Source: an uncultured Actinomycetes bacterium
GTDB lineage: Bacteria > Actinomycetota > Thermoleophilia > UBA2241
Assembly (NCBI GenBank): GCA_963783865.1
Contig: CAWAPD010000002.1
Location: forward strand, 198,415 to 262,414
Direction: 5' to 3'
DNA length: 64,000 bases
Shown here: piece by piece, positions 37,532 through 62,756 of the stretch
Position numbering within the stretch: position 1 is the stretch's first letter
How the letters are laid out: the number at the start of each line of letters is the position of its first letter
Notes under the pieces: model-generated
Databases searched by the model: none
Seen by the model: the letters and a program-made list of their open reading frames with translations, nothing else
What the model was told of the DNA's origin: nothing
Translations under genes and position numbers: made by a program

Positions 37532-37570
37532 GGCCGCGTCCTCTTCACGACATCCTCTTCATCGCGGCCC

Positions 37571-39352: not shown

Positions 39353-39353
39353 C

Positions 39354-40010
39354 TCAGGCCTCGCTCTCCGGTCGCAGGAAGGTCTCGCGCTGGCGCAGCG
39401 ACCGCTTCAGGTCGCGCAGCGACACGGGCATCGCCTGGTCGACCCGCTGGGCACCCACGGTCCAGCTCGCCGGACGCCGCTCGGCGCCGACCTTCGACCG
39501 CAGCAGGAGGAGGCCCTCCATGAACGAGGTCGGCGACGGTGGACACCCCTGCACGTAGACGTCGACCGGCAGGAACGAGTCGACCCCCTGGACGACGCTG
39601 TAGACGTCGTACATGCCGCCCGAGTTGGCACAGGAGCCCATCGAGATCACCCAGCGCGGCTCCATCATCTGGTCGTAGAGGCGCTGGATCACCGGCGCCA
39701 TCTTCTGGAAGACGGTGCCGGCGACGATCATCACGTCGGCCTCGCGCGGCGAGCTGCGCAGCACCTCGGCGCCGAAGCGCGCGATGTCGTAGCGCGGCGT
39801 GAGGCTGGTCGCCATCTCCACGAAGCAGCAGGACAGCCCGAAGCCGAACGGCCACAGCGAGTTCTTGCGGCCCCAGGCGAGCAGCGACTCGAGCCCGGCG
39901 AGGGCGACGGGCGACGGCGGGCCCCCGGGCCCGCCGCCCGCTTCTTCGGTCGCGAGCCTGGCGAGCGCCTCCACTGTGCGAGACGGATGGTCGGCGCGGC
40001 GCGGTCTCAT
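39354..40010 (-). CDS. nuoB: NADH-quinone oxidoreductase subunit B (N2 cluster)
   Basis: …[14 protein letters not shown]…, …[12 protein letters not shown]…, …GCPP…; ATG overlaps stop of upstream CopC-CopD gene (ATGA). Confidence 0.9.
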
Positions 40011-41410: not shown

Positions 41411-41414
41411 ACGC

Positions 41415-43886: not shown

Positions 43887-44917
43887 TTCAGCTCCTCGAG
43901 GTAGGCGACAAGGTCGGCGATCTGCTGGGGCGGCAGCGGGACCGCCGGCATATGGGCGCCCGGCTTGATCCCCTGCGGGTCGTCGATCCAGCGGGCCAGG
44001 TTGGCCGGCGTGTTGGTCAGCGTGTAGGCGGCGATGCCCTGCCGGCTGCCGAAGTGGGTCAGGTCGGGGCCGAATTCGCCCTGCAGGCTGGTGCCGCGGA
44101 TGGCGTGACAGCCGCTGCAGGGCAGGGCGGCGATCTCGCGGGAGCCGGCGATCGCCTGCGCCCCGACCGGCCGGCGCGCCGGCTTCTGCTGGTCGTCGAA
44201 CCAAGCCCCGAACTGCGCCGAGGTCTCGACCACGAACAGGAACCGCATCTTCGGGTGCGCCGTGCCGCAGAACTCGGCGCACTGGCCCAGGTAGGTCCCC
44301 GTCTTGGTGGGCAGGAACGTCGTGGCGTTCACGTGCGTGGGGATCATCTGCACCTTGCCGCCCATCTGCGGCACCCAGAAGCTGTGGATCACGTCGCTCG
44401 AGAGCAGGTTGATGTGCACGACCTGGTCGACCGGCACGTGGATCTCGTTGGCGGTGCGGAACGTGGCCCCGCGGTACTGTACGTCCCACCACCACTGGCG
44501 GCCGTCCACCGTGAGCTGGGTCGGGTCCGCCGACGACATGCCGACGAGCTGGCCGGTGGTGTGCAGGGTCATGGCGAACAGCACCGAGACGATGACCAGG
44601 GGGATCGCCGTCCAGACGAGCTCGATCCTGAGGTTGCCCCTGGTCTGGCTGGCTTCTTCCTCGGGCCGGTTGCGGAAGCGCACGACGTCGATGGCGAGCC
44701 AGATCCACACGGTCACGAGCACCGTGCTCAGAATCGCGAAGATCTCGATCGCCAGGCGGGCGATGTCGTGCGCCTCGGGGCTCGCCGGGTGGAATATGGT
44801 GGGAGCGTTGTCGGCGCAGGCCGCCAGCAGCACCAGGACCAGCAGCCAGAGGCCGGGCGCGACCCGCGTCGCGACGCGGGTCGCGCCCCGCCGCCGGGTT
44901 CGCGATGCGGCGGGCAC
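43883..44917 (-). CDS. ctaC: Cytochrome c oxidase subunit II fused to C-terminal cytochrome c domain (caa3-type, CaaA-like), lipoprotein signal
   Basis: Lipobox LLAAC|ADN, two TM, CuA site …HSFWVPQMGGK…GQCAEFCGTAHPKM…, C-terminal CSGCH haem c motif; start assigned to GTG 44917 (no in-frame ATG upstream of signal peptide), uncertain. Confidence 0.8.
   Translation of the reverse strand: MPAASRTRRRGATRVATRVAPGLWLLVLVLLAACADNAPTIFHPASPEAHDIARLAIEIFAILSTVLVTVWIWLAIDVVRFRNRPEEEASQTRGNLRIELVWTAIPLVIVSVLFAMTLHTTGQLVGMSSADPTQLTVDGRQWWWDVQYRGATFRTANEIHVPVDQVVHINLLSSDVIHSFWVPQMGGKVQMIPTHVNATTFLPTKTGTYLGQCAEFCGTAHPKMRFLFVVETSAQFGAWFDDQQKPARRPVGAQAIAGSREIAALPCSGCHAIRGTSLQGEFGPDLTHFGSRQGIAAYTLTNTPANLARWIDDPQGIKPGAHMPAVPLPPQQIADLVAYLEELK
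44855..44888. promoter_or_regulatory. 34-bp perfect palindrome GGGCGCGACCCGCGTCGCGACGCGGGTCGCGCCC in the ctaB / caa3 divergent region (inside the 5' end of the subunit II ORF as called)
   Basis: Verified base by base (17/17 complementary pairs); about 80-110 bp upstream of ctaB ATG. Confidence 0.6.
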
Positions 44918-44965
44918 GGGTACTGAGCGGCTGCCGACGAGGTCGTCGACGGAGGAGCCTGAGGG

Positions 44966-45802
44966 ATGGAGTACCTGCGGGTCACCAAGCCCCGCATCGT
45001 GGCGCTGTTCGCCGTGACGGTCCTGGCCGCCCTGCTGCTGGCCGGGCCGCCGAGCCCCGCGGTGAGCGCCGCCGTGCTCTGCGCGGCGGCGCTCACCGTC
45101 GCCGGCGCGGCGGCCATGAACGGCGCCCTCGAGTACCGGCTCGACGCCCGCATGGAGCGCACCCGCCGGCGCCCGGTCGCCAGCGGCGCCATCACGCCGC
45201 GCCACGCCCTGCTCTTCGGGCTGGCCCTGACGGCCGCCGGCGTCGTCGCCGTGCTCGCGGTCGGCGGCGCCCTCGCGGCGGCCTTCGCCGCCGCCGGCGC
45301 CGCCTACTACGTCGTGGTCTACACGCTGTGGATCAAGCCCCACACCGGCCTCAGTTCCATCCCCGGCGGACTGGCCGGCGTCTTCCCCGTGCTCATCGCC
45401 TGGGCCGCCGCCGGGGCGCCGGCCGACGCCGACATCGCCTTCGTGTGCCTGCTCATCGTCGCCTGGTCGCCGCCCCACTTCTGGGCTCTCGCCTACGCCC
45501 GCGAGACCGAGTTCGCGGCCTCTGGCATCCCCGTGCCCCCCGTCGTCTACGGGGACCGCGCCGCCGGCCGCCAGCTGCTGGTGGCCACCGCCGTGCTGGT
45601 CGGGATCACCTTCGTGGCCGCCGCCACGCTCTACGGGTGGCTGTTCTGGGTCGTGGCGCTCGCCGGCGGCGCGGCCCTGCTGGCCGCGGCCGCGCTGGTC
45701 GCGCGCCGCGGCTCGCGCCGCGCCGCCTGGACGCTGCACAAGCTCTCCGGGCCCTACCTGGCCCTGCTCCTGGCGGCCGTCGTCGTCGAGCGGCTGCTGT
45801 AG
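44966..45802 (+). CDS. ctaB: Protohaem IX farnesyltransferase (haem O synthase)
   Basis: 278 aa, 8-9 TM UbiA-fold; …LRVTKPRIVAL…; RBS GGAGGAG; divergent from caa3 genes, convergent with qcrB. Confidence 0.85.
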   Translation: MEYLRVTKPRIVALFAVTVLAALLLAGPPSPAVSAAVLCAAALTVAGAAAMNGALEYRLDARMERTRRRPVASGAITPRHALLFGLALTAAGVVAVLAVGGALAAAFAAAGAAYYVVVYTLWIKPHTGLSSIPGGLAGVFPVLIAWAAAGAPADADIAFVCLLIVAWSPPHFWALAYARETEFAASGIPVPPVVYGDRAAGRQLLVATAVLVGITFVAAATLYGWLFWVVALAGGAALLAAAALVARRGSRRAAWTLHKLSGPYLALLLAAVVVERLL

Positions 45803-45819
45803 GTCGCGGCGCTCGTCCA

Positions 45820-47190
45820 TCACGCCACCGCCGTCGTCGCGCGCCGCCAGGCGCGGAACAGCAGGTACGCGAGCAGTGCGATCACGAACGGCAGCATGAC
45901 CGTCAGCAGCTGCAGGATCGCCAGCAGGGTCGGCTGGTGCCAATGGAACACCACCGCGAACACGTCGTTGCCCCCGCCGATGAGCAGCACCATGACGAAG
46001 GTGAACAGGCCCAGGGCCACGGCCATTCGGCCGGGCCGGGCCGACGGCGGGTCGAGCACGTTGTGGAACCCGCGCCCGGTCACCGCCGCGTCGAGCCAGG
46101 GCCAGATCAGGAGGAACCCGACGATCAGCCCGGGCAGCAGGGCGGCGGGCCAGAACAGCGCCGGCAGCGCGTAGCTACCGATGTGGATGTCCCACGAGGG
46201 CATCATGCGCACCGCCCCCTCGAGCCACCCCGTGTACCAGTCGGGCTGGGCGAACGAGGTCGAATCCCACGGCGTGTAGGGCCCATACAGCCAGACCGGG
46301 TTGATCTGGAAGAAGCCGCCCATGATCGTCAGCAGGCCGCCCACGGCCATGAAGAAGCCGGTCGTGCGCAGGGCGTAGGCGGGCATGAGCGGCGTGCCGA
46401 CGACGGTGCGGTCGTCGCGACCGCGGCCCGGGTACTCCGTGTGCCGCTGCAGCCACAGCAGCCCCAGGTGGGCGCCGAGCAGGCCGGCTATGAGGGCCGG
46501 GATCAGGAAGATGTGCACGGGGTAGAGGCGGGCGATCAGCGTCTCGCTGGGGAACGAGCCGCCGAACATCAGCGAGGCGAGCTGCGGGCCGACCAGCGGG
46601 ATGGACTGGGTGATCGAGTAGGCGATCCGCAGGCCGGTGCCCGACAGGAGGTCGTCGGGCAGCGAGTAGCCGAACACGCCGTTGGTGAACACCATCGTCA
46701 GCAAGCCGAGGCCGATCAGCCAGTTGACGCGCCGCGGGCGCCGATAGGCGCCGGTGAAGAACAGGCGCGCCAGGTGGATCGAGACCGCCGAGGCGAACAG
46801 CAGGGCCGCCCAGTGGTGGATCTGGCGCACCAGCAGGCCCCCACGGACGTCGAAGCTCAGGTCGAGGACCGAGCGATAGGCCGCCGACACGGTGGTCCCG
46901 TCGAGCGGCTTGTAGCTCCCGTGGTAGACGACCGGCGTCTGCGAGGCCGAGAAGAACAGGGCCATGAAGACGCCGGTCACGACCAGCACGATGAAGCTGT
47001 AGAGTGCGATCTCGCCGAAGAAGAACGACCAGTGGTCGGGGAAGATGTGGCGCAGCTCCTCGCGCAGCACGCGGCTGCCGCCGAGCGTGTCGTCGAGCCA
47101 GTCGCCGGCGGCGTGCGCGGCGTCGCGGACCTTGCGGCGGCCCACGCCGAACGAGGCGCCGAGCTGTCTGGTCAGGCGCGTGTCAGGCAT
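45820..47190 (-). CDS. qcrB: Cytochrome bc1 (menaquinol-cytochrome c reductase) cytochrome b subunit
   Basis: 456 aa; haem-ligating His pairs in helices (…RQIHHWAALLFASAVSIHL…, …YPVHIFLIPALIAGLLGAHL…). Confidence 0.9.
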   Translation of the reverse strand: MPDTRLTRQLGASFGVGRRKVRDAAHAAGDWLDDTLGGSRVLREELRHIFPDHWSFFFGEIALYSFIVLVVTGVFMALFFSASQTPVVYHGSYKPLDGTTVSAAYRSVLDLSFDVRGGLLVRQIHHWAALLFASAVSIHLARLFFTGAYRRPRRVNWLIGLGLLTMVFTNGVFGYSLPDDLLSGTGLRIAYSITQSIPLVGPQLASLMFGGSFPSETLIARLYPVHIFLIPALIAGLLGAHLGLLWLQRHTEYPGRGRDDRTVVGTPLMPAYALRTTGFFMAVGGLLTIMGGFFQINPVWLYGPYTPWDSTSFAQPDWYTGWLEGAVRMMPSWDIHIGSYALPALFWPAALLPGLIVGFLLIWPWLDAAVTGRGFHNVLDPPSARPGRMAVALGLFTFVMVLLIGGGNDVFAVVFHWHQPTLLAILQLLTVMLPFVIALLAYLLFRAWRRATTAVA

Positions 47191-48103
47191 ACACGTTCCA
47201 GAAGCCGGGGCCGATGGGCTCCTTGAAGTCGCTCTGCGCGACCAGGAACCCGTTCGCGTCGACAGCCAGCGGGAGCTGCGGCAGGGGGCGCGCGGCCGGT
47301 CCCGAGACCGGCCGCGCGCCCCTCAGCACGTCGAAGGTCGACTGGTGGCAGGGGCACAGCAGCACCTGCGCCTGGTCCTCGTACTGCGACACCGCGCAGC
47401 CGGCGTGGGTGCAGACGCGCGAGAAGGCGAGGAAGCCGTCGGGACTCCACGACTCGCGGCCGGGCAGGGGGGTGAACCGCCCGGGCAGGCGCAGCAGTGC
47501 CACCTGCGAGTCGCCGGCGTCGGTGTGACCCTCGGGGAACGCGACCAGGAACCCGCCGGCGGCCAGCGCATCGCGGGTCACCGGCTGGCCGTCGATCGTC
47601 ACCAGCCTGGCGCCCGGGGTCCAGTGGGTGTGGAACGAGCGGCCGCGCGGCCGCGAGCCGAACGCGCCCACGAGCGCGAGCTGGCTCAGGGCGAAGACCG
47701 TGGCACCGGTCACGAGGAGGCCCGTCAGCAGGCGTCGCCGGGTGAACAGCGACGCCTGGCGATGCAGCTCGTCTCCCAGCACCGCGCGCTCTTCCGCGTC
47801 GTCCGGCGGGATCGGGTACCGGCCCACCGCTGATTGGTCCTCGGGCCCGACCAGGTCGCGGCCCCAGTAGCTCAGCGACAGCGCCAGCCCCAGCAGGGCG
47901 GCGCCCAGCGTGCCCCCGAGCCAGGCGTTGTCGGCGTCGAGCACGAACGCCACGACGAAGCCGATGGCGCCGGCGATCGTGATCAGCGCCCCGAGTGCCA
48001 CGGGCCAGCCCGAGCGCCGGTGGGCGCGGGACGGAGGCGCCGGCGCCCCCGGCGCCGGCCCCGCCTCGACGGCCTGCGGCTCGCGCACCGGCGCGTCAGC
48101 CAT
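47183..48103 (-). CDS. qcrA: Rieske [2Fe-2S] iron-sulfur subunit of bc1 complex
   Basis: 306 aa; Rieske boxes CTHAGC … CPCHQS; 3 TM. Confidence 0.9.
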   Translation of the reverse strand: MADAPVREPQAVEAGPAPGAPAPPSRAHRRSGWPVALGALITIAGAIGFVVAFVLDADNAWLGGTLGAALLGLALSLSYWGRDLVGPEDQSAVGRYPIPPDDAEERAVLGDELHRQASLFTRRRLLTGLLVTGATVFALSQLALVGAFGSRPRGRSFHTHWTPGARLVTIDGQPVTRDALAAGGFLVAFPEGHTDAGDSQVALLRLPGRFTPLPGRESWSPDGFLAFSRVCTHAGCAVSQYEDQAQVLLCPCHQSTFDVLRGARPVSGPAARPLPQLPLAVDANGFLVAQSDFKEPIGPGFWNVYA

Positions 48104-48875
48104 GCGCGCCCTCCTTGCGATGGGCCAGCCAGACGGCGACGAGGAGCATTGCGACGAGCAGGAACACCGACGCGACGCCCTCGGTCACGGGGCCGTAGTA
48201 GCCGAGCCCGCGCCCGCCGGGCGACGGCGGGCTGCCGATGACCTCGACGTAGAGAGCCACGGCGGTCTGCTGCGGCACGGTGAAGGTGGTGCCGGCGAAC
48301 AGCGGCATGTTGTCGGGGCCGTAGATCATCGCCGCCAGCGCCTCCGCGGGCGGGTAGTCCGACAGGTTGGGCGCGTTCTTGATGCCCTGGGTCAGCGCGC
48401 CGCCGCGGCCCACTGCGCTGTGGCATCCCGAGCAGTAGAGGCGGTAGAGCTGGCCGCCCTGAGCCGCGGTCGCCGAACGTGCCGCGGGATCCGAGAGCGT
48501 TCCGGCCACGTAGGCCGCGACCTGGTCGATCTGAGCCGGCGACAATCCCTCGAACGCCGGCATCCTGATCCCACCCCGGGTCACCATCCCGGCCACGAGG
48601 CTGGCCGCGGCGTCCGGGGCGAGGGACGGTCCGATCTTTCCCTCGCCCCGGGCGCCGTGACAGTGCTTGCAGTTGGCGGCGAACAGCGCCGCTCCGGGAT
48701 CGGCCGGCACGGACGCCGGCGAGGTGACGGGAGCCGGCGAGGTGACGGCCGAGGGCGTGCCCGACGGCGATCCCGACGCCGCGCCCGCCGTCAGCGCACC
48801 GGTGGTGAGCACGGCCACGACGACCGCCAGCGTGCATCCCGCAAGCCAGACCGCGAGCCGACCGCGCGCGCTCAT
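48096..48875 (-). CDS. qcrC: Dihaem cytochrome c subunit of bc1 complex
   Basis: Two CxxCH (CKHCHG, CSGCHS), C-terminal TM anchor; ATG overlaps nuoA stop (ATGA). Confidence 0.85.
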   Translation of the reverse strand: MSARGRLAVWLAGCTLAVVVAVLTTGALTAGAASGSPSGTPSAVTSPAPVTSPASVPADPGAALFAANCKHCHGARGEGKIGPSLAPDAAASLVAGMVTRGGIRMPAFEGLSPAQIDQVAAYVAGTLSDPAARSATAAQGGQLYRLYCSGCHSAVGRGGALTQGIKNAPNLSDYPPAEALAAMIYGPDNMPLFAGTTFTVPQQTAVALYVEVIGSPPSPGGRGLGYYGPVTEGVASVFLLVAMLLVAVWLAHRKEGAHG

Positions 48876-49264
48876 CCCCGCCCCCGGCGCGAACGTCCGC
48901 TGGTGCCCCAGTCGAGCGCCCGCAGCCGCCACAGGTACGCCAGTGCGGCCGCCAGCAGCGTCACGAACACGGCGAGCTCGACGTAGCCGGTCCAGCCCAG
49001 GCTGCGGGCCGCGACCGCCCAGCCGAAGATGAACGCGACCTCCAGGTCGAACACCACGAAGAAGATGGCGACCTGGTAGAACTCGATCGAGAAGCGCCGG
49101 GGCAGGCCGCCGGCGGGATCGATCCCCGACTCGTAGCGGTCGCTCGTGCCGAGGTCGCGATGGCGCTGGCCCAGCACCATGGGCAAGCCGATCATCGTCG
49201 CCGTCAGACCGACGACGATCGCGGTGTAGACGAGGAACGACCAGGTGGCCCCGACCGCAGGCAT
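48872..49264 (-). CDS. nuoA: NADH-quinone oxidoreductase subunit A
   Basis: 130 aa, 3 TM; …YESGIDPAGGLPRRFSIEFYQVAIFFVVFDLEVAFIFGWA… diagnostic NuoA/ND3 motif; RBS GGGAGG. Confidence 0.9.
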   Translation of the reverse strand: MPAVGATWSFLVYTAIVVGLTATMIGLPMVLGQRHRDLGTSDRYESGIDPAGGLPRRFSIEFYQVAIFFVVFDLEVAFIFGWAVAARSLGWTGYVELAVFVTLLAAALAYLWRLRALDWGTSGRSRRGRG

Positions 49265-51696: not shown

Positions 51697-54321
51697 CTAG
51701 TCGCGCTCCGGATAGCCGGCCAGCGACCCCCGGACCCCCGCCCAGATGGCCTCGTTCAGAACCTCCTCGTTGGCCTCGTCGGGCCCCGAGAAGTCCAAGC
51801 GGGCGCACTCGCGTGCAAGCTTGGAGTCGGACGTGATCCTCGGATAGCCGCGGTCGCCGAAGGCCGTGACCTTGGGCGTGAGCGCCGCGTACGGCGTCAG
51901 GTCCGGCGTGGAGCTGAAGGCGTCCCACATCGGCGTCGCGCGCTGGTCGAAGATGCTCATCGGCGAGAGCCCCAGCAACTGCTCCATCGTCGCCAGCATC
52001 GCCGCCGTGTCGTAGTGGGTCGAATCGATCGTCGCGTGCTGGGTGTAGGGACTGATCACGAAACACGGCGAGCGGTGCGAGTCGACGTGGTCGGGTCCGT
52101 CCTGGGCGTCGTCCTCGACGACGAAGATGGCGGTGCTGGCCCAGTACTTGCTGTGCGACACGACATCGACGAGGCGTCCCAGCGCGAGGTCGTTGTCGGC
52201 CATGAACGACTCCGGCGTGGCGTCGCCCGGCGTCATCCCCTCCGTGTGGTCCATCGGCAGGTAGACGATCTCCAGGCCGGGAAGGTCGCCGTTCTTCTCG
52301 AACTGGCGGAACTCCCGCTGCCACTCGGGCTCGCGCACCTTGTGGTCCGGCGCCGACATGTCCCAGCCCACGTAGCGGGGATCGACGTGCACGCCGAACC
52401 GTGCCTGCAGGTGCGTCAGGTCGGAGTACCAGACCGTCTTGCCGTGCACCGTCTTCGAGGCCGTCGACTCGCCGTAGTCGCGATAGGTCACGTTATGGGC
52501 GGCGGCATCGTCCCAGAGGTACCCGACCGTAGCCGCCGCCACCGACCGCGGCACTGTCGTGTCCTCGGCCAGCGGCTCGCTCTTGAACTGCTGCTCGAGG
52601 GGCACGAACTCGCTGTCGTAGCTGCGCGAGTACGCCCACGCATAGTCGAACGGCCAGATCTTGTCGGTGTAATCGGTGGAGATGGCTTGCGTCGTCCATG
52701 GATGGCCGTCCTGCGACACCTCGGAGTCGACGTAGAAGTCGTCGAAGAGCACGAACTTGCTGGCCAGGGAACGATGGTTGGGGCTGCTCGACTGCTTGAA
52801 GAGCGTGAGGTCCGCGTCGCCGTTGCCCTCACCGAGGTCGCCGAAGACCTGGTCGTAGGTTCGGTTCTCCTTGATCACGTAGATCACATGCTTGATCGCG
52901 TCGAGCGCGGCGGGTTTCGCCCCCGCCGACCCGGTGGCGTGGTCGTTCACCTTCACCTGGGCCGACCAGCCGGCGAGCGAGTCCTGGGTCACCGTCCCCG
53001 GCAGGTCGATGACCTCGAGCGAGCCCTTCACCATCGTGCCGCTGTACTGCGACTCCGGGAGCGGCGGCGTGTACCAGTCGCCGGGATAGTAGTAGTAGGG
53101 CGCGGTGGGAGCTGGGCTCGGATACAGCGACTTTGGGACGAATGGGCCGGCGGGATTGGGGCCGGGGCCCGACCCGTACGTGTTGGTGACCACGAGCTGC
53201 GTGCCGTCGGGCGTGACCTGGATGCTCGACGGATACCATCCGGTCGGGATGAAGCCGAGGACCGTCCGGTTCTCGACGTCGACCACCGCGATCGCGTTCT
53301 CACCGGCGTCGGTGACGTAGAGGAGGTCCCCGTCTGGACTCACGGCGAGACCCACCGGGGTCGAACCCTTGGGTCCCCCCGGCACCAGCGCGACGTCGAT
53401 GGTCGCCGCGACCGCGTCGGTCTGCGTGTCGATCACCGAGACCGTGTCGCTGTTGGCGTTGGCGACGTAGACCTCGTCACGCTTCGGGTTGCTCGCGATC
53501 CCGGTGGGGTGGTCGGCGGTGAGCGGCGAGGCGTGCGGCGAGAGGACGATGGTCGCCACCGTCTTCTGTCTCGCGGTGTCGATGACCGACACGCGCCGGC
53601 CGGCCCAGTTCGTGACGTACGCCTTGTCGCCCTGGCGGTCGAAGGCGACGGCGAGGGGATAGCGGGCGCGGCCCAGCCCGATCCTCGCCGTCACCTTGTT
53701 CGTCGCCGGGTCGATCACGCTGACGACGTGGCCGGGCTGGTCCTCGTAGTCGTAGTCGGGGTTGGACAAGGCGCCGAGGTTCTCGGCCACATACACTCGC
53801 TCGCCGCGCGGCGTCTGGCCGCAGGCCAGACCCGACGGGAAGTACGGCGCCTTGATCTCCGCCACCGGCTTGAGGCCGCCGGCCGACGTGACCTTGTAGG
53901 CGTGGACCACCTGCTGGCCGGCGCCCGACGCCCACGCCTGCTTGCCATCGGCCGAGAAGACGACGCCGTAGAAGACCGACTCCCCCTGGTAGCCGTTGTA
54001 CTTCTCGAGGGCGGTGCGATCGCCGGTCGTGACGTCGTACACCTCGGTCGTCTCGTACTTCACGGCGGCGCCGCTCGACGTGACGAGCGCGTAGCGGCCG
54101 TCGGGCGAGAGCGCGACGCCCCACGGCCCCGGCAACCCGGCCTTGCCGGGCGGCACGGTGATCACCTTGCCGGCCGGCGTCAGCTCCCAGCCGGACGGCG
54201 TGATGGGGTTGGTGATCGACGCCGCCAGGGTCAGAGACGATCCGCCTCTCGACCCGCAGCCCCCAACGACGATCGCCGCCAGCATGGCGATCCCGGCCAC
54301 GATCCTTGCGGTAGTGCGCAT
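51697..54321 (-). CDS. Lipoprotein: N-terminal YVTN-type beta-propeller fused to C-terminal phosphoesterase (PF04185-like phospholipase C / acid phosphatase) domain
   Basis: Lipobox IVVGGCGS; repeated …YVTN…/…YVAN…/…YVTD… blades; C-terminal …IYVIKENRTYDQVFGDL… phosphoesterase signature; start at internal ATG (MRTTARIVAG…). Confidence 0.75.
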   Translation of the reverse strand: MRTTARIVAGIAMLAAIVVGGCGSRGGSSLTLAASITNPITPSGWELTPAGKVITVPPGKAGLPGPWGVALSPDGRYALVTSSGAAVKYETTEVYDVTTGDRTALEKYNGYQGESVFYGVVFSADGKQAWASGAGQQVVHAYKVTSAGGLKPVAEIKAPYFPSGLACGQTPRGERVYVAENLGALSNPDYDYEDQPGHVVSVIDPATNKVTARIGLGRARYPLAVAFDRQGDKAYVTNWAGRRVSVIDTARQKTVATIVLSPHASPLTADHPTGIASNPKRDEVYVANANSDTVSVIDTQTDAVAATIDVALVPGGPKGSTPVGLAVSPDGDLLYVTDAGENAIAVVDVENRTVLGFIPTGWYPSSIQVTPDGTQLVVTNTYGSGPGPNPAGPFVPKSLYPSPAPTAPYYYYPGDWYTPPLPESQYSGTMVKGSLEVIDLPGTVTQDSLAGWSAQVKVNDHATGSAGAKPAALDAIKHVIYVIKENRTYDQVFGDLGEGNGDADLTLFKQSSSPNHRSLASKFVLFDDFYVDSEVSQDGHPWTTQAISTDYTDKIWPFDYAWAYSRSYDSEFVPLEQQFKSEPLAEDTTVPRSVAAATVGYLWDDAAAHNVTYRDYGESTASKTVHGKTVWYSDLTHLQARFGVHVDPRYVGWDMSAPDHKVREPEWQREFRQFEKNGDLPGLEIVYLPMDHTEGMTPGDATPESFMADNDLALGRLVDVVSHSKYWASTAIFVVEDDAQDGPDHVDSHRSPCFVISPYTQHATIDSTHYDTAAMLATMEQLLGLSPMSIFDQRATPMWDAFSSTPDLTPYAALTPKVTAFGDRGYPRITSDSKLARECARLDFSGPDEANEEVLNEAIWAGVRGSLAGYPERD

Positions 54322-54543
54322 GGCTTCCCCCTCGAGTCCTGCCACAAGAGATGGACTCACCAACAAGACACCCCAGCGGAGGTCGCGTCAACATCGGAAA
54401 AGATGCGAGGCGGTAGCTTGACCGACCGGTGGGCGGGCCGCGGCCATACGGCCGCGCCCCGCGTGTGGATCCGACCCGCGCTCCCGTCCCGGGTTCGCGC
54501 AACGCAGGGTCGTCGCTTACCATTGCGAAAGTACGGGAACAGA

Positions 54544-55884: not shown

Positions 55885-57105
55885 CTAGCGCGACGCCGTG
55901 GGTGAAGCCGACGGCGTCGCCGTGGGCGCGGCCGAGTCGGTCGGCGTGGGCGACGGCGTAGGCGTGGCCGACGGGCTCGGCGACTCCGTGGGCGTCGGGG
56001 TGATGGTCGGCTCGCCGTAGGGGCCTGTCGCCGTCGGCGAGGGGGTCGGGCTGGCGCTGCCGTCGCCCGCCGACGGGCTCGGCGACGGGTCGGCGGTCGG
56101 CGAGGTCGAGGCCTTGGGACTGTGGGTGGGCGACGCCGAGGGGGCGGCCCCTCGGGCCGCCGGGCTCGGCGTCGTTCCTCGCGCCGAGCCACCGACGCCG
56201 ACCGCGCCGGTGACGGTCCGCGTGGCGGCTGCCGCGGCATGGGGTATGGGCCGGTGAGTATCGACCCGCTTCTCGACCGCCGACCCGACGTTGATCGCTG
56301 TGGCCGCCGCCAGTACGACGGCGGCCAACTTCGCGACTTGCGTCGCCCCGATGGCCGATCCGATCCCGCCCAGCGCCCCGCCCAGCGGCAGCAGGGGCGC
56401 GGCGATCGGCGAAGGCACGGCGGGAACGGGCGGCGGCAGGTGCAGGCCCGGCGGCAGCGGCACATGCGGCAGCGCACGCAGGGCGGCGAGGGCTGCCATC
56501 GCCGACGGCGCCGGCAGCCCCTCCGCCCGGCAGAGCTCGCGGTAGCGGCTACGGAAGGCGTTGCGCGAGCGCGCCAGCAGGACCTCGGCCGAGCCGGGCG
56601 TGAGGTCGAGCGTGGCGGCGACCTCGACGAGGCTCAAGCCGTGCACGTCCTTGAGCAGGAGCGCCAGGCGCTGGCGGCGCGTGAGGCCGCGCAGGGCGGC
56701 CGCGAAGAGGCGGCCCTGCGCGGCCCGCTCGAACGGGTCGTCGGGCGCGACGGCGTCGTCGCGGTGGTCCGCGCCGACGACCGCGCGACGCTTGGCGGCG
56801 CGGAAGTGGTCGTAGCAGCGGTTGACGGTCAGCCGGTAGAGCCAGGGGCGCAGCATGACCTCGCGCTGGCGCGGCACGCGCTCGAAGGCGCGGATCAGCA
56901 CGTCGTGGGTGATGTCCTCGGCGTCCTCACCGCGGCGCACGAGGTGCAGGGCGACGTTGTAGATGCCGCCCGCGTAGTGTCGGTGCAGGACGGCGAACGC
57001 GTCGGGCGACCCCCGCCGGAGGCCCTCGACGAGCCGGGCCTCGCCCTGTTCGTCCAGGGCTTCCGCGCCACCGGCGCGTGACCCTGTCGTGGCCACCGTC
57101 CCCAT
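55885..57105 (-). CDS. ECF (group 4) sigma factor fused to a single TM helix and a long Pro/Thr/Ser-rich extracytoplasmic tail
   Basis: σ2 (…DITHDVLIRAFERVP…WLYRLTVNRCYD…) and σ4 (…LTRRQRLALLLKDVHGLSLVEVAATLDLTPGSAEVLLARSRNAF…) regions, then TM (VAKLAAVVLAAATAINVGSAV), then ~150 aa SPTPSPTAT low-complexity. Confidence 0.8.
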   Translation of the reverse strand: MGTVATTGSRAGGAEALDEQGEARLVEGLRRGSPDAFAVLHRHYAGGIYNVALHLVRRGEDAEDITHDVLIRAFERVPRQREVMLRPWLYRLTVNRCYDHFRAAKRRAVVGADHRDDAVAPDDPFERAAQGRLFAAALRGLTRRQRLALLLKDVHGLSLVEVAATLDLTPGSAEVLLARSRNAFRSRYRELCRAEGLPAPSAMAALAALRALPHVPLPPGLHLPPPVPAVPSPIAAPLLPLGGALGGIGSAIGATQVAKLAAVVLAAATAINVGSAVEKRVDTHRPIPHAAAAATRTVTGAVGVGGSARGTTPSPAARGAAPSASPTHSPKASTSPTADPSPSPSAGDGSASPTPSPTATGPYGEPTITPTPTESPSPSATPTPSPTPTDSAAPTATPSASPTASR

Positions 57106-57284: not shown

Positions 57285-57995
57285 ATGAGGAAGGTCATCG
57301 TCTTCATCGTCGCAGCGCTCGTCGCCCTGGCCGTCTGCGCGCCGGCCATGGCATCGTCGAGCGCGATCACCTGGTGGCATCCACCGACATCGTTCACCGT
57401 CGCAGGCAAGGTCCAGGCGGTCGACACGACCAACAGCAGACTCGTCCTGCGCGTGCAGCTCGCCTCGCTGTCGGCCAAGCAGTATCTCGGCGAAGACATG
57501 ACCGTCGTGGTCGCGCCTGACGCCCAGCTGCTCAAGGCCAAGGGCGTGGGCTTCGTCAAGATCGCCCTCGCGGACATCGCCCCCGACGACCACGTGCGCG
57601 TGATGGGCACGGTCGACCGTTCGGGTGTGGGCGGACCCACCTACACCGCCGAGCGCGTCATCATGCGCCATCTGGTGCCGCCGGAGGGGATCAAGTTCTT
57701 CGCCTTCCGCGGGCGGGTGGTCTCGGTGGACGCGGCCGGCAGCAAGCTCGTCGCCCACCTGCACCTGGTCACGCGGGCGCTGTGGCAGGCGCTCGAGACC
57801 GACTTCGGCTTCACCGTCGGCCCGAAGGCACGCATCGTGCAGTGGGTCGACGGCGCGCCGGTCGTGATCACCCTGGCCGACGTGGCCGCCGGCGACACCG
57901 TGCTGGCCAAGGGTCACATCGACCGGACCGATCCAGCCAACCCGGTCTTCATCATCCACTGGATGAGGGTCTGGAAGGCGGCGCCGACGCTGTAG
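57285..57995 (+). CDS. Secreted protein with two tandem ~90-aa beta-rich repeats (internal duplication)
   Basis: Signal peptide MRKVIVFIVAALVALAVCAPAMA; repeat 1 FTVAGKVQAVD…RVMGTVDRSG, repeat 2 FAFRGRVVSVD…LAKGHIDRTD. Confidence 0.65.
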   Translation: MRKVIVFIVAALVALAVCAPAMASSSAITWWHPPTSFTVAGKVQAVDTTNSRLVLRVQLASLSAKQYLGEDMTVVVAPDAQLLKAKGVGFVKIALADIAPDDHVRVMGTVDRSGVGGPTYTAERVIMRHLVPPEGIKFFAFRGRVVSVDAAGSKLVAHLHLVTRALWQALETDFGFTVGPKARIVQWVDGAPVVITLADVAAGDTVLAKGHIDRTDPANPVFIIHWMRVWKAAPTL

Positions 57996-58275: not shown

Positions 58276-58304
58276 TTGGCTCATCTCGCATTACGCGGTA
58301 CCCT
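58276..58304 (+). promoter_or_regulatory. Candidate sigma-70-type promoter TTGGCT-N17-TACCCT upstream of the ferredoxin / multihaem cytochrome operon
   Basis: Hexamers and 17-nt spacing read directly; rare AT-containing stretch. Confidence 0.4.
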
Positions 58305-58366
58305 AGCGTGGACTTGGAAGCGTGCGGCGACCGGATCCGCGCTCGGGGAGGGAGGCAGCGAGCCCC

Positions 58367-58639
58367 TTGGATTGGTTCAAGTCCGACAAGACGGAGCATA
58401 CGATCCTCGCGACGGCGTGGGTCGTGCCGGAGCCGAGCCGTTGCGTCCAATGCGGGGTCTGCTCGTTCAACTGCCCGATGGGGATCGACGTGCGCCGGTA
58501 CGTGTGGCGGGGCGAACCGGTGAAGGACCGCCACTGCCTGACCTGCGGCGAGTGCGTGAACCGCTGTCCCCGCAGGCTGCTGGCCTTCGAACCGATCAGG
58601 TCCCCAGGAACCCCCCAGCCGAATGCGACGGTCCTTTAG
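58367..58639 (+). CDS. 2×[4Fe-4S] ferredoxin
   Basis: CVQCGVCSFNCP and CLTCGECVNRCP; start either TTG 58367 (strong RBS GGGGAGGGAGG upstream) or GTG 58322. Confidence 0.8.
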   Translation: MDWFKSDKTEHTILATAWVVPEPSRCVQCGVCSFNCPMGIDVRRYVWRGEPVKDRHCLTCGECVNRCPRRLLAFEPIRSPGTPQPNATVL

Positions 58640-58640
58640 C

Positions 58641-59957
58641 ATGGCTCGACGTCATGTCTTGATCGGCAGCGGGCCGGCCGCCATCGCGGCCGCGGAGACG
58701 ATCCGGAGCCGCGACGATCAGGCCGAGATCGTGATCGTCGGCGCCGAGCCCCACGGGTACTACTCGCGCCCGGGTCTCGCCTACTACCTGGCGAAGGAGG
58801 TGCCCGAGGAAAGGCTCTTTCCCTTCACGCCCCAGGACTTCGCCCGCCTGAACGTCCAGTTGCTCCTCGAACGCGCGGTCCACCTCGACCCCCCCGCGCA
58901 CCGGGTGACCATGGAGGGTGGCCGAGAGCTCCCCTACGATCGCCTGCTGGTCGCCACGGGTTCCAGGGCGATCCCAGCCAAGGTGCCGGGCGCCGACCTG
59001 GACGGCGTGGTCAAGCTCGACGACATGGACGATGCCCGCGATCTGATCCGAAGAAGCCGCCACGCCAAGGCGGCGGTGGTCGTCGGAGGCGGGATCACCG
59101 CCCTCGAGATCGCTGAAGGCCTGAGTGCTCGTCGGGTGCACGTCCACTACTTCATGCGCAAGGGCCGCTACTGGAGCAGCGTCCTCTCGGAGTCCGAATC
59201 GCGCATGATCGAGCAGGGACTTCGCGCTCGCGGCGTGCAGATCCACGACTTCACCGAGCTTGCAGGGATCCTTGGCAGGCAAGGCCGGGTCGTCGGCGTC
59301 GAGACTGGTGACGGCACGCAGATCCCCTGCGATCTCGTGGCCATGGCGCTTGGTGTCCGTCCCCAGAAGGAACTGGCCGACGAGGCCGGGCTCGACTGCG
59401 AGCGCGGGATCCTGGTCAACGAGCACCTGCGTTCGAGTGACGAGCACATCTTCGCGGCGGGCGACATCGCCGAGGTACGCGAGACTCTCACCGACCGGCG
59501 TACCCTCGAGGTGCTGTGGAGCTCGGCCCTGGCCAAAGGCCGCATCGCCGGCCTCAACATGGCCTCGGACTCCACGCACGCCTACGACACGGGCACGCCC
59601 CTCAACGTCACCAGGCTGGCCGGCTTCAAGGTCACGATCATCGGTTCCGTCGGCAGCGGCAAAGACTCCGACCGGCAAAGCCCCGCCCGTGGCGAGAGCG
59701 AGACCTGGGAGGAGCTGGGCGAGGCGGTCGCCGTGGAGTCGCAGAGCGGCGAAACCCACATCCGGCTCGCCCTGGGAGAGAGCACAATAGCGGGCGCCGT
59801 CGTGATGGGAGACCAGGAGATCTCATTCCCCCTTCATGAGATCATCGCGGCGCGCGCCGACGTCAGTGACATCCGGGCGAGCCTTCAGGAGCCGGCGGCT
59901 CCGGTAGCCGAGATCGTGCGGGAGTTCTGGCCGGGATCGAGGACGCGCCTTGTCTAG
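58641..59957 (+). CDS. FAD-dependent pyridine-nucleotide-disulfide-family oxidoreductase (ferredoxin/rubredoxin-reductase or NAD(P)H-nitrite-reductase-like) with Reductase_C dimerisation domain
   Basis: ATG 2 nt after ferredoxin stop; FAD site HVLIGSGPAAIAAA, …YSRPGL…, NAD(P) site VVVGGGITALEIA, …FAAGDIA…. Confidence 0.85.
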   Translation: MARRHVLIGSGPAAIAAAETIRSRDDQAEIVIVGAEPHGYYSRPGLAYYLAKEVPEERLFPFTPQDFARLNVQLLLERAVHLDPPAHRVTMEGGRELPYDRLLVATGSRAIPAKVPGADLDGVVKLDDMDDARDLIRRSRHAKAAVVVGGGITALEIAEGLSARRVHVHYFMRKGRYWSSVLSESESRMIEQGLRARGVQIHDFTELAGILGRQGRVVGVETGDGTQIPCDLVAMALGVRPQKELADEAGLDCERGILVNEHLRSSDEHIFAAGDIAEVRETLTDRRTLEVLWSSALAKGRIAGLNMASDSTHAYDTGTPLNVTRLAGFKVTIIGSVGSGKDSDRQSPARGESETWEELGEAVAVESQSGETHIRLALGESTIAGAVVMGDQEISFPLHEIIAARADVSDIRASLQEPAAPVAEIVREFWPGSRTRLV

Positions 59958-60717
59958 GCGTTCAGGGAAGCGCCGGCACACGTTCGGGGCGGTCCCGGCC
60001 GCAGCAGTCTCCTGGCTCGGGCGATATCGGGAGCTCTGGTACGCGCTCGGGGCGATCGTCGTGGTCACGGCATTCTATCTGCTCGCGTATCGACAGGCGG
60101 GCAGGTTCCCCTCGGCGTCCAGTCTCGCGGGTCACGGGATCGGCATCCTGGGCTTCATCCTCATGCTGATGACCGCGACCCTCTACTCGATCCGCAAGCG
60201 GCTGACCGATGCCCGCTGGGGGAGCATGGCAGCCTGGCTCAGATTCCATATGGTCACGGGGTTGGTCGGCCCCTACATGGTCTTGCTCCACACCAGCATG
60301 CGGTTCCGGGGATTGGCAGGCGTGGCCATGCTCCTGACCGTCGTCGTCGTGATCAGCGGCCTGGTCGGCCGGTACATCTACACCGCCGTGCCCCGCGTCA
60401 TCGAAGGCGCCGAGCCCGACGTCGACCCGCTCGATCACCCGGTTGCGCGATCCGAAGTGTCGTCGATGGCCTCGGCCGATCTGGCGATAGCCCCGGCCGT
60501 CGCCCTGGACCCGTCCCCCATCGGGAGTGGCCAGCCCTGGGGGGCGCAGGCTGCCCCGGCTGGGCGGCGGTCTCTGGACCGGCGTCTTGATCGCCTCGCG
60601 GCGCGGAGGCGGGCGCTAGCGGTCTGGCGTTCCCTCCATCTCCCCCTCACCTGGGCGCTCTTCGTCGCTGCCTTCGTGCACGCGGCCGGGGCCCTCTACT
60701 ACTCGATCGGGCGATAG
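59950..60717 (+). CDS. Polytopic membrane protein (5 TM) with conserved His pairs; candidate b-haem or quinone-interacting membrane anchor
   Basis: TTG start overlapping upstream stop by 8 nt; TMs with …WLRFHMVTGLVGPYMVLLH… and …SLHLPLTWALFVAAFVHAAG…; functional assignment is inference. Confidence 0.6.
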   Translation: MSRRSGKRRHTFGAVPAAAVSWLGRYRELWYALGAIVVVTAFYLLAYRQAGRFPSASSLAGHGIGILGFILMLMTATLYSIRKRLTDARWGSMAAWLRFHMVTGLVGPYMVLLHTSMRFRGLAGVAMLLTVVVVISGLVGRYIYTAVPRVIEGAEPDVDPLDHPVARSEVSSMASADLAIAPAVALDPSPIGSGQPWGAQAAPAGRRSLDRRLDRLAARRRALAVWRSLHLPLTWALFVAAFVHAAGALYYSIGR

Positions 60718-60733
60718 GAGACGTGGTGCGACT

Positions 60734-61534
60734 GTGAAGGATCGACCGCGCTTCCTGTCCGGCATGCGAGTGGTGGCCGCCGTGGTCACCCTCCTGGGCA
60801 TCGGGGTGTGGATCCTGATCCAGGGCCCGGCCCTGTTCAGCCCAGGCCCCCTGAATGCGCAGGCCAAGACCCAGGCGCTGGGAGGTGTCACCAGTCATGC
60901 TCAGCTGGCCGGTCGATGCGGCGCCTGTCACGCCGCTCCCTGGAGCTCCCAGACCATGGCCGACCGCTGCAACGCCTGCCACACAGACGTCAGAACCCAG
61001 ATTCAGGGCCACAGCGGGATCCACGGCGGTCTGGTAGGCGCGATGTCATCCCCCACCTGCGGCGTCTGCCATTCGGAGCACCTCGGACCCAACGGCGCGC
61101 TCACGGCCAACTTCGACCACAACGCCTTCCCGTTCAAGCTGACTGGCGCGCACGCCAGGGTGGCGTGCCAGCTCTGCCACACCACCGCCACGTCCCTCCA
61201 AGACCTGCGCAACACGCCTCAGGACTGCTACTCCTGCCACGCGAACGTCGACAAGCACTCTGGGACCTTCGGGAAGCTGTGCGGGCAGTGCCACAACACG
61301 ACCACCTGGGCCAACGCGAAGTTCGACCACACCGTCTTCCCGCTCAACCACGGCAGCAACCAGCAGACGGCCACGTGCACGACGTGCCATCCGAACGGCT
61401 TCAGCACCTACACATGCCTTGGGTGCCACTTCCACACCCCGGCCCGAGTCCAGTCCGACCACGAGGGGAAGAGCCTCGCCGCGCTGGCTGACTGCATCCA
61501 CTGCCATCCCGGCGGGCGGGGAGCGGGCAACTAG
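60734..61534 (+). CDS. Membrane-anchored multihaem cytochrome c with nine CxxCH motifs
   Basis: GTG start after RBS AGGAG; N-terminal TM anchor; CGACH, CNACH, CGVCH, CQLCH, CYSCH, CGQCH, CTTCH, CLGCH, CIHCH counted directly; recurring FDHxxFP…C..CH paired-haem pattern. Confidence 0.85.
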   Translation: MKDRPRFLSGMRVVAAVVTLLGIGVWILIQGPALFSPGPLNAQAKTQALGGVTSHAQLAGRCGACHAAPWSSQTMADRCNACHTDVRTQIQGHSGIHGGLVGAMSSPTCGVCHSEHLGPNGALTANFDHNAFPFKLTGAHARVACQLCHTTATSLQDLRNTPQDCYSCHANVDKHSGTFGKLCGQCHNTTTWANAKFDHTVFPLNHGSNQQTATCTTCHPNGFSTYTCLGCHFHTPARVQSDHEGKSLAALADCIHCHPGGRGAGN

Positions 61535-61661: not shown

Positions 61662-62669
61662 CTACCTCCGCAGGAACTCCGCCATGGTCGCCGCCCGCGC
61701 GTCGTTCGCCGCGAGCGGCTTGAGCCCCCAGTCCGCCTCGATCGTGTGCAGCAGCGAGTAGTGGTCGTAGGGCCGTGCCGACCGGTACCCGGTCCGCGCC
61801 CCGCTGCCGGCGAAGATCGTGGCCACGTGGTTGTCGGTGTCGCTGCCCTCGTCCCACGTGATCACGAGCAGCGAGGGGGACGAGGTGAACGCGGGCGAGC
61901 CGAGTATCTGCGGCACCTCCTTCGCCAGCCACGCGTCGCCGGTCGAGACCGGGCAGTCGTGCATGTCGCTGCACATGTTGGGAGTGATGAAGGCGAAGTC
62001 GGGCGTAGTCTTCGCCGATTGCAGGTCGGTGGCAAGCTGCGTGAACGGCACGACGTGACTGTCGCGTCGCGCCGCGTTGTCGAGGATGTCGGTGTAGTAG
62101 AGGAACGGGATGTGCTTGACCGCGTAGAGCGAGCCGGCGTTCGAGCTGTAGCCCGGCGATGGCATGCTCTCGCCGTAGAGCTTCCAGGTGCGGCCCGACG
62201 CCTCCATGCGGTCGGCCAGGTTCGCCACGTCCACTGCGTACCCGGCCGTCGGCGGGTTGCGGTCGTCGGTGATTCCCTGCGTGGAACCGCTCGTGAGCGC
62301 GATGTAGTTGGGCAGGCTGGGATGGGTGATCGCCGAGTAGTCGGCGGCCAGCGAGTAATGGGCTGCCAGCCCGTTGATGAACGGTGCCTGCGTGTTGCCG
62401 ATGATCTCGCTCGTCGAGTGGTTCTCCATGACGATCACGAAGATGTGCGCGAGCGGTGGAAGGCCGCCCGTCGTGGCGGCGGAGGACGACGCTGTGGGCG
62501 AGGGCGAGGATGAGGGGATCGGCGTCGACGGCTGAGCCGTCGACGCCGCCCCCGATCCCGATCCGCAGCCCGCCACGGCGAGAAGCGCCAGCAGCGCGGC
62601 CGCGACCCACACGTGCGTCGGGGCCGCGAAGCCGGCGCGGCGCCGGGCGCACGCGAACGTTCTGGTCAT
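61662..62669 (-). CDS. Phosphoesterase-family (PF04185-like acid phosphatase / phospholipase C) lipoprotein
   Basis: Lipobox LLAVAGCGS; …IFVIVMENHSTSEIIG… signature; paralogous to C-terminal domain of the 51697-54321 protein. Confidence 0.75.
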   Translation of the reverse strand: MTRTFACARRRAGFAAPTHVWVAAALLALLAVAGCGSGSGAASTAQPSTPIPSSSPSPTASSSAATTGGLPPLAHIFVIVMENHSTSEIIGNTQAPFINGLAAHYSLAADYSAITHPSLPNYIALTSGSTQGITDDRNPPTAGYAVDVANLADRMEASGRTWKLYGESMPSPGYSSNAGSLYAVKHIPFLYYTDILDNAARRDSHVVPFTQLATDLQSAKTTPDFAFITPNMCSDMHDCPVSTGDAWLAKEVPQILGSPAFTSSPSLLVITWDEGSDTDNHVATIFAGSGARTGYRSARPYDHYSLLHTIEADWGLKPLAANDARAATMAEFLRR

Positions 62670-62756
62670 GACCTCGTCGGGGCTCACGATGGGTCCGACT
62701 TGCCCAGTACGGGCGATGCCCAGACCGTTGGGCCGCCGTGACCGGCCGCCCGCCGT

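Follow-up and report, generated by a model that had tools for sequence, protein, structure and literature searches.

The NOX enzymes, the ferric reductases and the Fre-MsrQ system share one logic, in which electrons pass from cytoplasmic NAD(P)H through a flavin and two stacked b haems to an extracytoplasmic acceptor; in NOX, the histidine spacings are 13 and 12. In FdnI-type proteins, the four haem histidines come from three helices. The Tmc, Hmc and Nhc complexes of sulfate reducers combine a periplasmic c3-type multihaem cytochrome with a membrane cytochrome b and a cytoplasmic iron-sulfur (FeS) protein; Tmc and Hmc use an HdrD-like FeS protein with a CCG domain and a cytochrome b of the HdrE/NarI type, operate without an NAD(P)H flavoprotein, and are regarded as inward carriers of electrons released by the oxidation of periplasmic H2 or formate. 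In the Rnf-MmcA system of Methanosarcina acetivorans and the Ndh2-EetAB-PplA system of Listeria, electrons from cytoplasmic ferredoxin or NADH reach an extracytoplasmic carrier without an outer-membrane conduit. Fre-MsrQ has been described as a two-component NOX-like system whose reductase is a separate protein (PMC5676040), and CbcL (GSU0274), in which a HydC/FdnI-like di-haem cytochrome b domain is combined with nine c-haem motifs, has been proposed to be a quinol oxidase (PMC6295460). Here we describe a four-gene operon, fdx-red-mem-cyt, located in a 64,000-nucleotide stretch of contig CAWAPD010000002.1 (assembly GCA_963783865.1, positions 198,415 to 262,414) from an uncultured bacterium of the Thermoleophilia; the whole stretch is called the window, and coordinates are counted from its first letter. 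The genes encode a ferredoxin, a flavoprotein reductase, a five-helix membrane protein and a nonahaem c-type cytochrome. By analogy, the operon would work like NOX/Fre-MsrQ, Tmc or CbcL while being a member of none of them, and we propose, with a probability of roughly 55%, that its products would form one self-contained, quinone-independent conduit that carries electrons outward from NAD(P)H through FAD, two [4Fe-4S] clusters and two b haems to a multihaem cytochrome c.

The unit consists of four co-directional open reading frames (ORFs) on the + strand (58322/58367-61534 in the ORF listing of the window), and these are tightly packed, as had been stated in an earlier note made from the letters of this stretch. 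One nucleotide lies between the fdx stop and the red start, the start of mem overlaps the end of red by 8 nt, and a spacer of 16 nt, GAGACGTGGTGCGACT, separates mem from cyt. The earlier note had given the first gap as 2 nt and had begun the unit at 58276, which belongs to an ORF read in a different frame, 46-91 nt ahead of the real start. It had the length of the last gap right; the ribosome-binding site that it placed there comes down to, at most, a weak Shine-Dalgarno-like GAGA(C)G in GAGACGTGGTGCGACT. The longest ORF for fdx runs from a GTG at 58322 to 58639 (105 aa), and the public gene call on an identical contig (ENA ERZ25039467 contig_18349) starts at a TTG at 58367, which yields 90 aa; a Shine-Dalgarno-like element read from the sequence, GGGAGGGAGG (58346..58355, + strand), stands 11 nt 5' of this TTG and agrees with the public call. 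The G+C content at third codon positions is 0.85-0.88 in each of the four genes, in a window of 66-75% G+C (approximately 70%), and this indicates that all four frames are real coding genes. Scans of 57-62 kb for promoters, terminators and Rfam families returned nothing usable.

Conservation of the four genes together in other genomes had been named beforehand as one of two observations on which the proposal of a common module would stand or fall. One genome per species was scanned (185,579 species), which gave at least 571 confirmed stretches, and synteny was tested by tblastn detection of the genes in the best 80 loci. These loci came from Thermoleophilia, other Actinomycetes, Gemmataceae/Planctomycetia, Gemmatimonadota, Polyangiaceae and many Chloroflexota, and 66 of them had enough upstream DNA to be judged. 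The order fdx-red-mem-cyt was present in 62 of the 66: Thermoleophilia 13/13, another actinomycete 1/1, Planctomycetota 5/5, Gemmatimonadota 4/4, Myxococcota 1/1, Chloroflexota 37/41, and one of one unclassified. The same arrangement in 62/66 loci of five phyla is far beyond chance, and the four genes are thus co-conserved. Furthermore, fdx, red and mem have similarity scores that rise and fall together from locus to locus (rho 0.55-0.84), and clustering of all ORFs in the loci revealed no fifth gene common across phyla. Homologues of cyt number in the hundreds, all unnamed, and the contexts of three of them show the identical four genes. The cytochrome family is common in Thermoleophilia and Chloroflexota, which weakens the earlier view that multihaem cytochromes are uncommon in GC-rich, monoderm-like lineages. 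Two variants of the arrangement were found, namely fdx-mem-cyt without a reductase in a member of the Planctomycetia (L017) and mem-cyt alone, with neither reductase nor ferredoxin, in a member of the Chloroflexia (L052). Distant relatives of mem also adjoin multihaem cytochromes. One such locus (L088; ENA ERZ25039492 contig_46545) carries an FNR-like (CGPPPM motif) plus [2Fe-2S]/Fer2 reductase gene, followed by a distant relative of mem and then by a multihaem cytochrome; it is rich in frameshifts, its gene boundaries are unreliable, and only the adjacency of the genes was kept. Two apparent fusions, one of Fer2 and mem (P0370) and one of mem and cyt (P0321), would have pointed to physical contact, but their sequences and the six-frame view of L088 contain out-of-frame stretches of the kind that long-read frameshifts leave; both are probably artefacts, and neither was counted as evidence.

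The first gene, fdx (58367..58639, + strand), encodes a predicted cytoplasmic 2x[4Fe-4S] ferredoxin. Two CxxCxxCxxxCP motifs, at residues 26 and 57 of the 90-aa form, identify the protein as a ferredoxin of the bacterial 2x[4Fe-4S] type, and both cluster motifs are conserved across 23 orthologues. Pfam matches to Fer4_9 (2.4e-9) and Fer4_10 (5.6e-9) were above cut-off, and no hydrophobic segment was found in the sequence. The second gene, red (58641..59957, + strand), encodes a predicted cytoplasmic FAD/NAD(P)H oxidoreductase of 438 aa, with Pfam matches to Pyr_redox_2 (2.8e-51) and, for the second Rossmann fold, Pyr_redox (2.1e-10); no transmembrane (TM) segment was found in its sequence. The two Rossmann folds place it in the ferredoxin/rubredoxin-reductase class, which is marked by the lack of a redox-active disulfide. 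By our own reading of the sequence, made without a reference alignment, the redox-active cysteine of CoA-disulfide reductases appears to be missing, and a conserved YSRPGLAYY occupies its expected place; in the alignment of red, which covered 65 orthologues, GGGxxxxE is conserved. Two arginines that follow the second Rossmann strand, R173 and R176, are invariant and hint at NADPH as the donor.

In a search of PDB sequences, the closest relative of red was AorC (8c0z_E, 6.2e-36), followed by putidaredoxin and rubredoxin reductases. AorC is an NAD-binding FAD subunit whose flavin and a [4Fe-4S] cluster in the ferredoxin-like AorA are 9.5 Å apart (bioRxiv 10.1101/2023.01.23.525143). With this architecture, a solved structure offers a direct precedent for fdx and red as a pair that links NAD(H) to [4Fe-4S] clusters. 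Among NCBIfam models, red came closest to PadH and to the FAD/NAD part at the N-terminus of NirB, with scores far under cut-off in both cases (178 bits against PadH, for an equivalog cut-off of 475), and fdx scored 25.5 bits against PadF, for which the equivalog cut-off is 150; PadH and PadF form a pair that parallels red and fdx. Judged by these comparisons, PadH/PadF and AorC are paralogues of the operon proteins, not orthologues. Like red and fdx, AorC-AorA of tungsten aldehyde oxidoreductase and PadH-PadF of phenylglyoxylate oxidoreductase wire an FAD/NAD subunit to a ferredoxin-like [4Fe-4S] subunit; however, these modules serve soluble cytoplasmic enzymes, whereas the partners of the operon module are a cytochrome b in the membrane and a multihaem cytochrome.

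The third gene, mem (59950..60717, + strand), encodes a 255-aa membrane protein that is predicted to be a di-haem cytochrome b on the basis of its modelled helices, its conserved histidines and weak Pfam matches. The AlphaFold2 (AF2) model, which is mediocre (predicted local distance difference test, pLDDT, 68.3), places five helices at residues 27-49, 56-84, 93-115, 120-146 and 204-252. Lysine and arginine are abundant at the N-terminus and in the loops 82-120 and 140-230, and by the positive-inside rule the protein would have its N-terminus inside and its C-terminus outside. The five helices and the two helices with H-x13/14-H-like pairs that had been read from the sequence earlier were both recovered, with a spacing of 13 in each pair: H100-x13-H114 on TM3 and H230-x13-H244 on TM5. 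Given an N-in orientation, one histidine of each pair would be near each face of the membrane, H100 and H230 at the inner face and H114 and H244 at the outer face. Among 74 orthologues from all five phyla, these four histidines are 99% conserved, and a fifth histidine at the outer end of TM2, H62, is 92% conserved. Two histidine pairs at a spacing of 13 residues correspond to the classic geometry of two transmembrane b haems, and the binding of haem is predicted accordingly.

At the level of protein families, the mem of the window had a single Pfam match, to Ni_hydr_CYTB, at 18.3 bits against a cut-off of 30.1. Among 33 members of the mem family, weak and mostly sub-threshold matches were obtained to Ni_hydr_CYTB (31/33, best E 1.3e-8), Ferric_reduct (14/33, best E 8.2e-4) and DUF4405 (13/33), all of which we take to belong to the clan of two-haem cytochromes b. 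The earlier suggestion of a DUF4405-like anchor for b haem therefore holds at the level of the clan, and the relatedness of mem to Ni_hydr_CYTB is likewise, as far as the profiles indicate, of clan level only. A search of PDB sequences with a mem profile gave no match. The family is large, with 3514 representatives at 50% identity.

The fourth gene, cyt (60734..61534, + strand), encodes a 266-aa c-type cytochrome that is predicted to be held at the outer face of the membrane by an N-terminal TM anchor. Nine CxxCH motifs, at residues 62, 79, 109, 145, 165, 183, 215, 228 and 254, and one hydrophobic helix (11-29) bear out the earlier description of a membrane-anchored cytochrome with nine such motifs; the repeated FDHxxFP...CxxCH units of that description are present, but they occur twice only and do not run throughout the protein. 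The best Pfam match was Cytochrome_C7 (6.4e-10), followed by Cytochrom_c3_2 (1.9e-9), both above cut-off. The nine motifs and 10 non-motif histidines are invariant in 63 homologues. With 10 additional histidines for nine haems, every haem can be a bis-histidine carrier, with no open catalytic site, and the combination of CxxCH motifs with conserved distal histidines fits the class III (c3/c7) cytochromes, with the ligation predicted from sequence. The AF2 model of cyt is mediocre (pLDDT 69.3), and a Foldseek search of this model against the PDB gave nothing significant. A profile of cyt against PDB sequences gave one marginal match only (E 2.5e-4); the matched entry bears the title cystathionine beta-synthase, and we take the match to be due to chance.

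The number of haem motifs in the partner cytochromes of other loci clusters at 9, 12, 15 and 18, mostly in steps of three, and is occasionally far higher; in Chloroflexota, partner cytochromes have up to 57 CxxCH motifs. Cytochrome chains of the c7 type are built of trihaem modules, and haem counts that rise in steps of three are as would be expected for a wire of adjustable length. Many Thermoleophilia carry a 12-haem form of cyt with a three-haem insertion after the third haem (alignment columns 147-228), and in many Chloroflexota loci (L028, L035-L085) a second or third paralogous multihaem cytochrome is encoded directly downstream. Residues H55, R4 and S9 of cyt are also conserved, such that one invariant histidine is present beyond the need of nine bis-histidine haems, and the short cytoplasmic N-terminal tail is conserved as well. 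Together with H62 of mem, the additional histidine and the tail could mean that a third, interfacial haem is bound and that cyt contacts the cytoplasmic subunits.

When the operon is set beside the described systems, its resemblance to NOX and MsrQ lies in mem, where the four histidines are on two helices with one helix between them, at spacings of 13 and 13. Unlike NOX or Fre, the operon has a flavoprotein of the Pyr_redox_2 type, not of the FNR class (FAD_binding_8/NAD_binding_6 or NAD_binding_1), and unlike NOX and Fre-MsrQ it adds a 2x[4Fe-4S] ferredoxin, has five TM helices instead of six, and has as its output a covalent multihaem c wire instead of O2 or MsrP. The anchor helix of cyt would supply a sixth helix in a complex. 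The mem of the window gave no match to Ferric_reduct (PF01794) at E<=1, and one family member that does match this model scored 16.9 bits against the 28-bit cut-off. Compared by description, the operon is like CbcL, MtrH and MtoC in that nine c haems are paired with a di-haem cytochrome b. CbcL, however, consists of one polypeptide chain in which the cytochrome precedes six TM helices, whereas in the operon the two parts are separate genes, 16 nt apart, with mem first; moreover, CbcL is proposed to act on the quinone pool, without cytoplasmic NAD(P)H or FeS partners. As in Tmc and Hmc, the two sides of the membrane would be connected through a cytochrome of the c3 type, a cytochrome b and an FeS protein in the cytoplasm; no CCG or Nitrate_red_gam domain was matched in the four operon proteins in searches of Pfam and NCBIfam. 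Rnf-MmcA and flavin-based extracellular electron transfer (EET) differ in that the operon lacks Rnf subunits, a type II NADH dehydrogenase (NDH-2), a flavinylated lipoprotein and a quinone step. The polymeric c7 cytochromes of Geobacter, such as the dodecahaem GSU1996, resemble cyt in the best Pfam match, Cytochrome_C7, and in haems that come in threes; unlike them, cyt is membrane-anchored and is encoded with its own membrane and cytoplasmic partners. None of the marks of EET, Mtr, Nrf or Hao that were looked for (NDH-2, an FMN-binding lipoprotein, a porin, CxxCK or a Tyr-crosslinked haem) was found in the operon or conserved beside it, and all nine motifs of cyt are CxxCH, none CxxCK. By these features, membership in NOX/MsrQ, in CbcL and in Tmc/Hmc each fails on at least one defining point. 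The statement in the earlier note that the gene combination matches no named system agrees with this, since cyt and mem fall outside every characterised system found, with no NCBIfam match and with source names that are all hypothetical; the placing of these two proteins in a known system with a defined partner set was the other observation that the note had named as speaking against its proposal.

The predicted topology is the one proposed at the outset, with fdx and red in the cytoplasm, an N-in, five-TM mem with two histidine pairs, and an N-terminally anchored, outward-facing cyt. In the proposed conduit, red would oxidise NAD(P)H in the cytoplasm and its FAD would hand the electrons on to the pair of [4Fe-4S] clusters in the small ferredoxin subunit, which would dock at the positively charged cytoplasmic face of mem. 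Two bis-histidine b haems stacked through the bilayer, ligated by H100/H230 inside and H114/H244 outside, would then carry the electrons to the outer face, where they would enter the nine bis-histidine c haems of the anchored cyt and from there reach an acceptor outside the cytoplasm. This acceptor may be Fe(III) or a humic-type oxidant, a further redox protein or possibly O2, and no quinone step would be needed. An outward direction is the most likely one, given the low potential of the donor NAD(P)H and a membrane potential that is negative inside and would favour the outward movement of electrons. We infer the cofactor loading, the formation of a complex, the direction and the identity of the acceptor from sequence. 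The hosts of the operon include aerobes, such as the organism of the window with its complex I, bc complex, aa3-type oxidase and CopCD, as well as mostly fermentative or anaerobic lineages, and roles may accordingly range from regeneration of NAD+ on Fe(III) or humics to assimilatory metal reduction and the supply of extracytoplasmic enzymes.

Several points weigh against this conduit. The export of electrons from NAD(P)H would dissipate the membrane potential and has no obvious use for an aerobe equipped with complexes I, III and IV, and the operon is located in housekeeping neighbourhoods, not beside genes of metal respiration. The mem protein is under every Pfam gathering threshold and a Foldseek search of its model against the PDB gave nothing significant; with the mediocre quality of that model, the case for haem binding comes down to the histidine pattern. 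A quinone site may be present on mem. In addition, the two variants L017 and L052 indicate that the mem and cyt pair can exist without the NAD(P)H module.

These points bear on the alternatives, of which we regard as unlikely the one in which mem and cyt would be a split, CbcL-like quinol:cytochrome c oxidoreductase or quinone reductase, with a menaquinone site near the inner haem and with red and fdx feeding, regulating or bypassing it. Geobacter CbcL does pair nine c-haem motifs with a di-haem b domain of the HydC/FdnI type (PMC6295460), the commonest weak match of the mem family, Ni_hydr_CYTB, is the HydC/FdnI family (31/33, best 1.3e-8), and the mem-cyt variant L052 and the reductase-free L017 would fit such an enzyme. 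A quinol oxidase, however, would need neither fdx nor red, and both stay joined to mem-cyt in 62/66 loci; the cytochrome of CbcL is N-terminal and fused to a six-TM domain, whereas here two separate genes follow each other in the opposite order; the four histidines of mem are on two helices, two on each, unlike the three-helix arrangement of the FdnI type; and no CbcL homologues were listed for Chloroflexi or Actinobacteria (Table 1, PMC6295460). A second alternative retains the wiring of the proposed conduit and gives it a non-respiratory purpose, be it Fe(III)/Cu(II) assimilation as in fungal FRE, repair as in Fre-MsrQ-MsrP, or the production of superoxide from O2 as in NOX. We hold this to be improbable too, but it would account for an operon that occurs in aerobes with a full oxidative chain and in anaerobic lineages alike, and that is located amid housekeeping genes (csp, ATP synthase genes, mreB) in Anaerolineae. 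Ferric_reduct is the second commonest weak match of the mem family (14/33), Fre-MsrQ feeds a periplasmic enzyme, and SpNOX reduces cytochrome c directly (PMC5676040). No candidate for a client enzyme is co-conserved with the operon, though, no tie to iron or copper uptake genes was seen across the loci, and the Chloroflexota partners of up to 57 motifs resemble long-range wires, not a short hand-off.

An inward flow of electrons, which the earlier note had offered as the reverse mode, is bioenergetically unlikely, and we consider it distinctly improbable that cyt would collect electrons from Fe(II), reduced humics, a cathode or a partner cell for the reduction of ferredoxin or NAD(P)+ by the complex. 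The whole cofactor chain is reversible in principle, and relatives of CbcL and MtoC occur in metal reducers and metal oxidisers alike (PMC6295460). Such a flow would nonetheless work against the inside-negative membrane potential and would require donors of very low potential, as NAD(P)+ and [4Fe-4S] clusters lie at approximately -320 to -400 mV, and the operon has no proton- or sodium-coupled subunit. Lastly, the synteny effectively refutes the notion that the four genes are mere neighbours with unrelated functions, for which we see hardly any chance: their order is the same in 62/66 loci of five phyla in which all flanking genes differ, their frames overlap or abut in the window, and the divergence of fdx, red and mem is correlated.

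Beyond the operon, the genes for complexes I, III and IV form a single co-directional run on the - strand of the window (25391-49264); this is the large respiratory supercluster (nuo, qcr and cta, approximately 25.4-49.3 kb) that had been noticed some 10 kb away. Within it, nuoA (48872-49264) is split from nuoB/CD/F/G/H/J/L/M (25391-40010) by qcrC, qcrA, qcrB, a ctaC-cytochrome c fusion, a ctaD-ctaE (COX1-COX3) fusion and copCD (40007-48932), and QcrA has the actinobacterial-type QcrA_N domain, which together with the nearest relatives places the window in the Thermoleophilia (Actinomycetota). The interleaving of the nuo operon with qcr and cta genes is unusual. The presence of QcrC and of the CtaC-cytochrome c fusion indicates that the host makes c-type cytochromes.

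The genes closest to the operon are not shared with other loci, and the link to an ECF sigma factor and envelope genes that had been drawn earlier was not conserved beside the operon elsewhere. The ECF-type sigma factor of the window (55885-57105, - strand) has Sigma70_r2 and r4_2 domains and a C-terminal extension of approximately 200 aa that is rich in Pro, Ser and Thr and includes a hydrophobic stretch; a 428-aa sigma factor of similar build, merely 30% identical, is encoded approximately 1.6 kb downstream of the operon in L003/L004, and this is not general. Directly 5' of the operon, a 236-aa secreted protein (57285-57995, + strand) has two similar halves of approximately 100 aa and no Pfam family, and it was not detected by tblastn beside the operon at any other locus. 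Proteins of the PF04185 phosphoesterase family are encoded on both sides of the operon (51697-54366 and 61662-62687, both - strand), one of them an 889-aa secreted protein with a beta-propeller/NHL part, and they were not found beside the operon in other genomes. Farther away, a clostripain-type Peptidase_C11 domain and a Ycf48/BNR-like beta-propeller occur together in one protein of 864 aa (22614-25208, - strand). At other loci, a cold-shock protein gene is present at 17 (16 Chloroflexota and one of the Thermoleophilia), just 5' of fdx in 8 of the 12 listed, and a few kb downstream of the operon, several Chloroflexota loci (Anaerolineae, L036-L083) carry mreB and the genes for ATP synthase. 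Relative to the window, the contig copy at ENA (L086) is shifted by 1 bp at some point between the YkuD and ferredoxin genes (approximately 55.8-58.3 kb), and in it the phosphoesterase and a saccharopine dehydrogenase are called as a single 761-aa product where the window has two ORFs (61.7-64.0 kb); these discrepancies are probably differences of assembly or polishing.

With respect to novelty, no NCBIfam model matched mem or cyt, the four proteins, looked up by exact sequence, yielded no names, and a published survey of multihaem cytochromes in Chloroflexi does not mention the gene set. Precedents in CbcL, NOX/MsrQ and Aor but no description of the set were found in the literature that was covered, which was incomplete and left most subscription journals outside, so that an earlier description is possible. 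To our knowledge, the export of electrons by monoderm and poorly studied phyla is largely not understood, and we know of no assigned Mtr, Pcc, CbcL/ImcH or flavin-based EET system in Chloroflexota or soil Thermoleophilia, where these systems are absent or unassigned. Chloroflexota dominate wastewater sludge and many sediments. A four-gene unit without a quinone step or an outer-membrane porin would be a new entry among electron conduits, and it is small enough for expression and reconstitution, which makes the hypothesis directly testable. Were its role metal assimilation, repair or the generation of reactive oxygen species, it would be the first of the NOX-like systems to have a flavoprotein of the Pyr_redox_2 type with an FeS relay as its basis, and as an exporter of electrons from NAD(P)H it would offer a compact part for wiring cytoplasmic metabolism to electrodes. 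More tentatively, and with a little less than even confidence, we suggest that the operon may represent a widespread, unnamed class of quinone-independent transmembrane exporters, built of a flavoprotein, a ferredoxin, a di-haem cytochrome b and a modular multihaem c wire, that would be the main route by which NAD(P)H is discharged to extracellular acceptors in Chloroflexota (Anaerolineae and others), Thermoleophilia, Gemmatimonadota and Planctomycetota; if so, these bacteria would possess a NOX-like enzyme that ends in a cytochrome wire.

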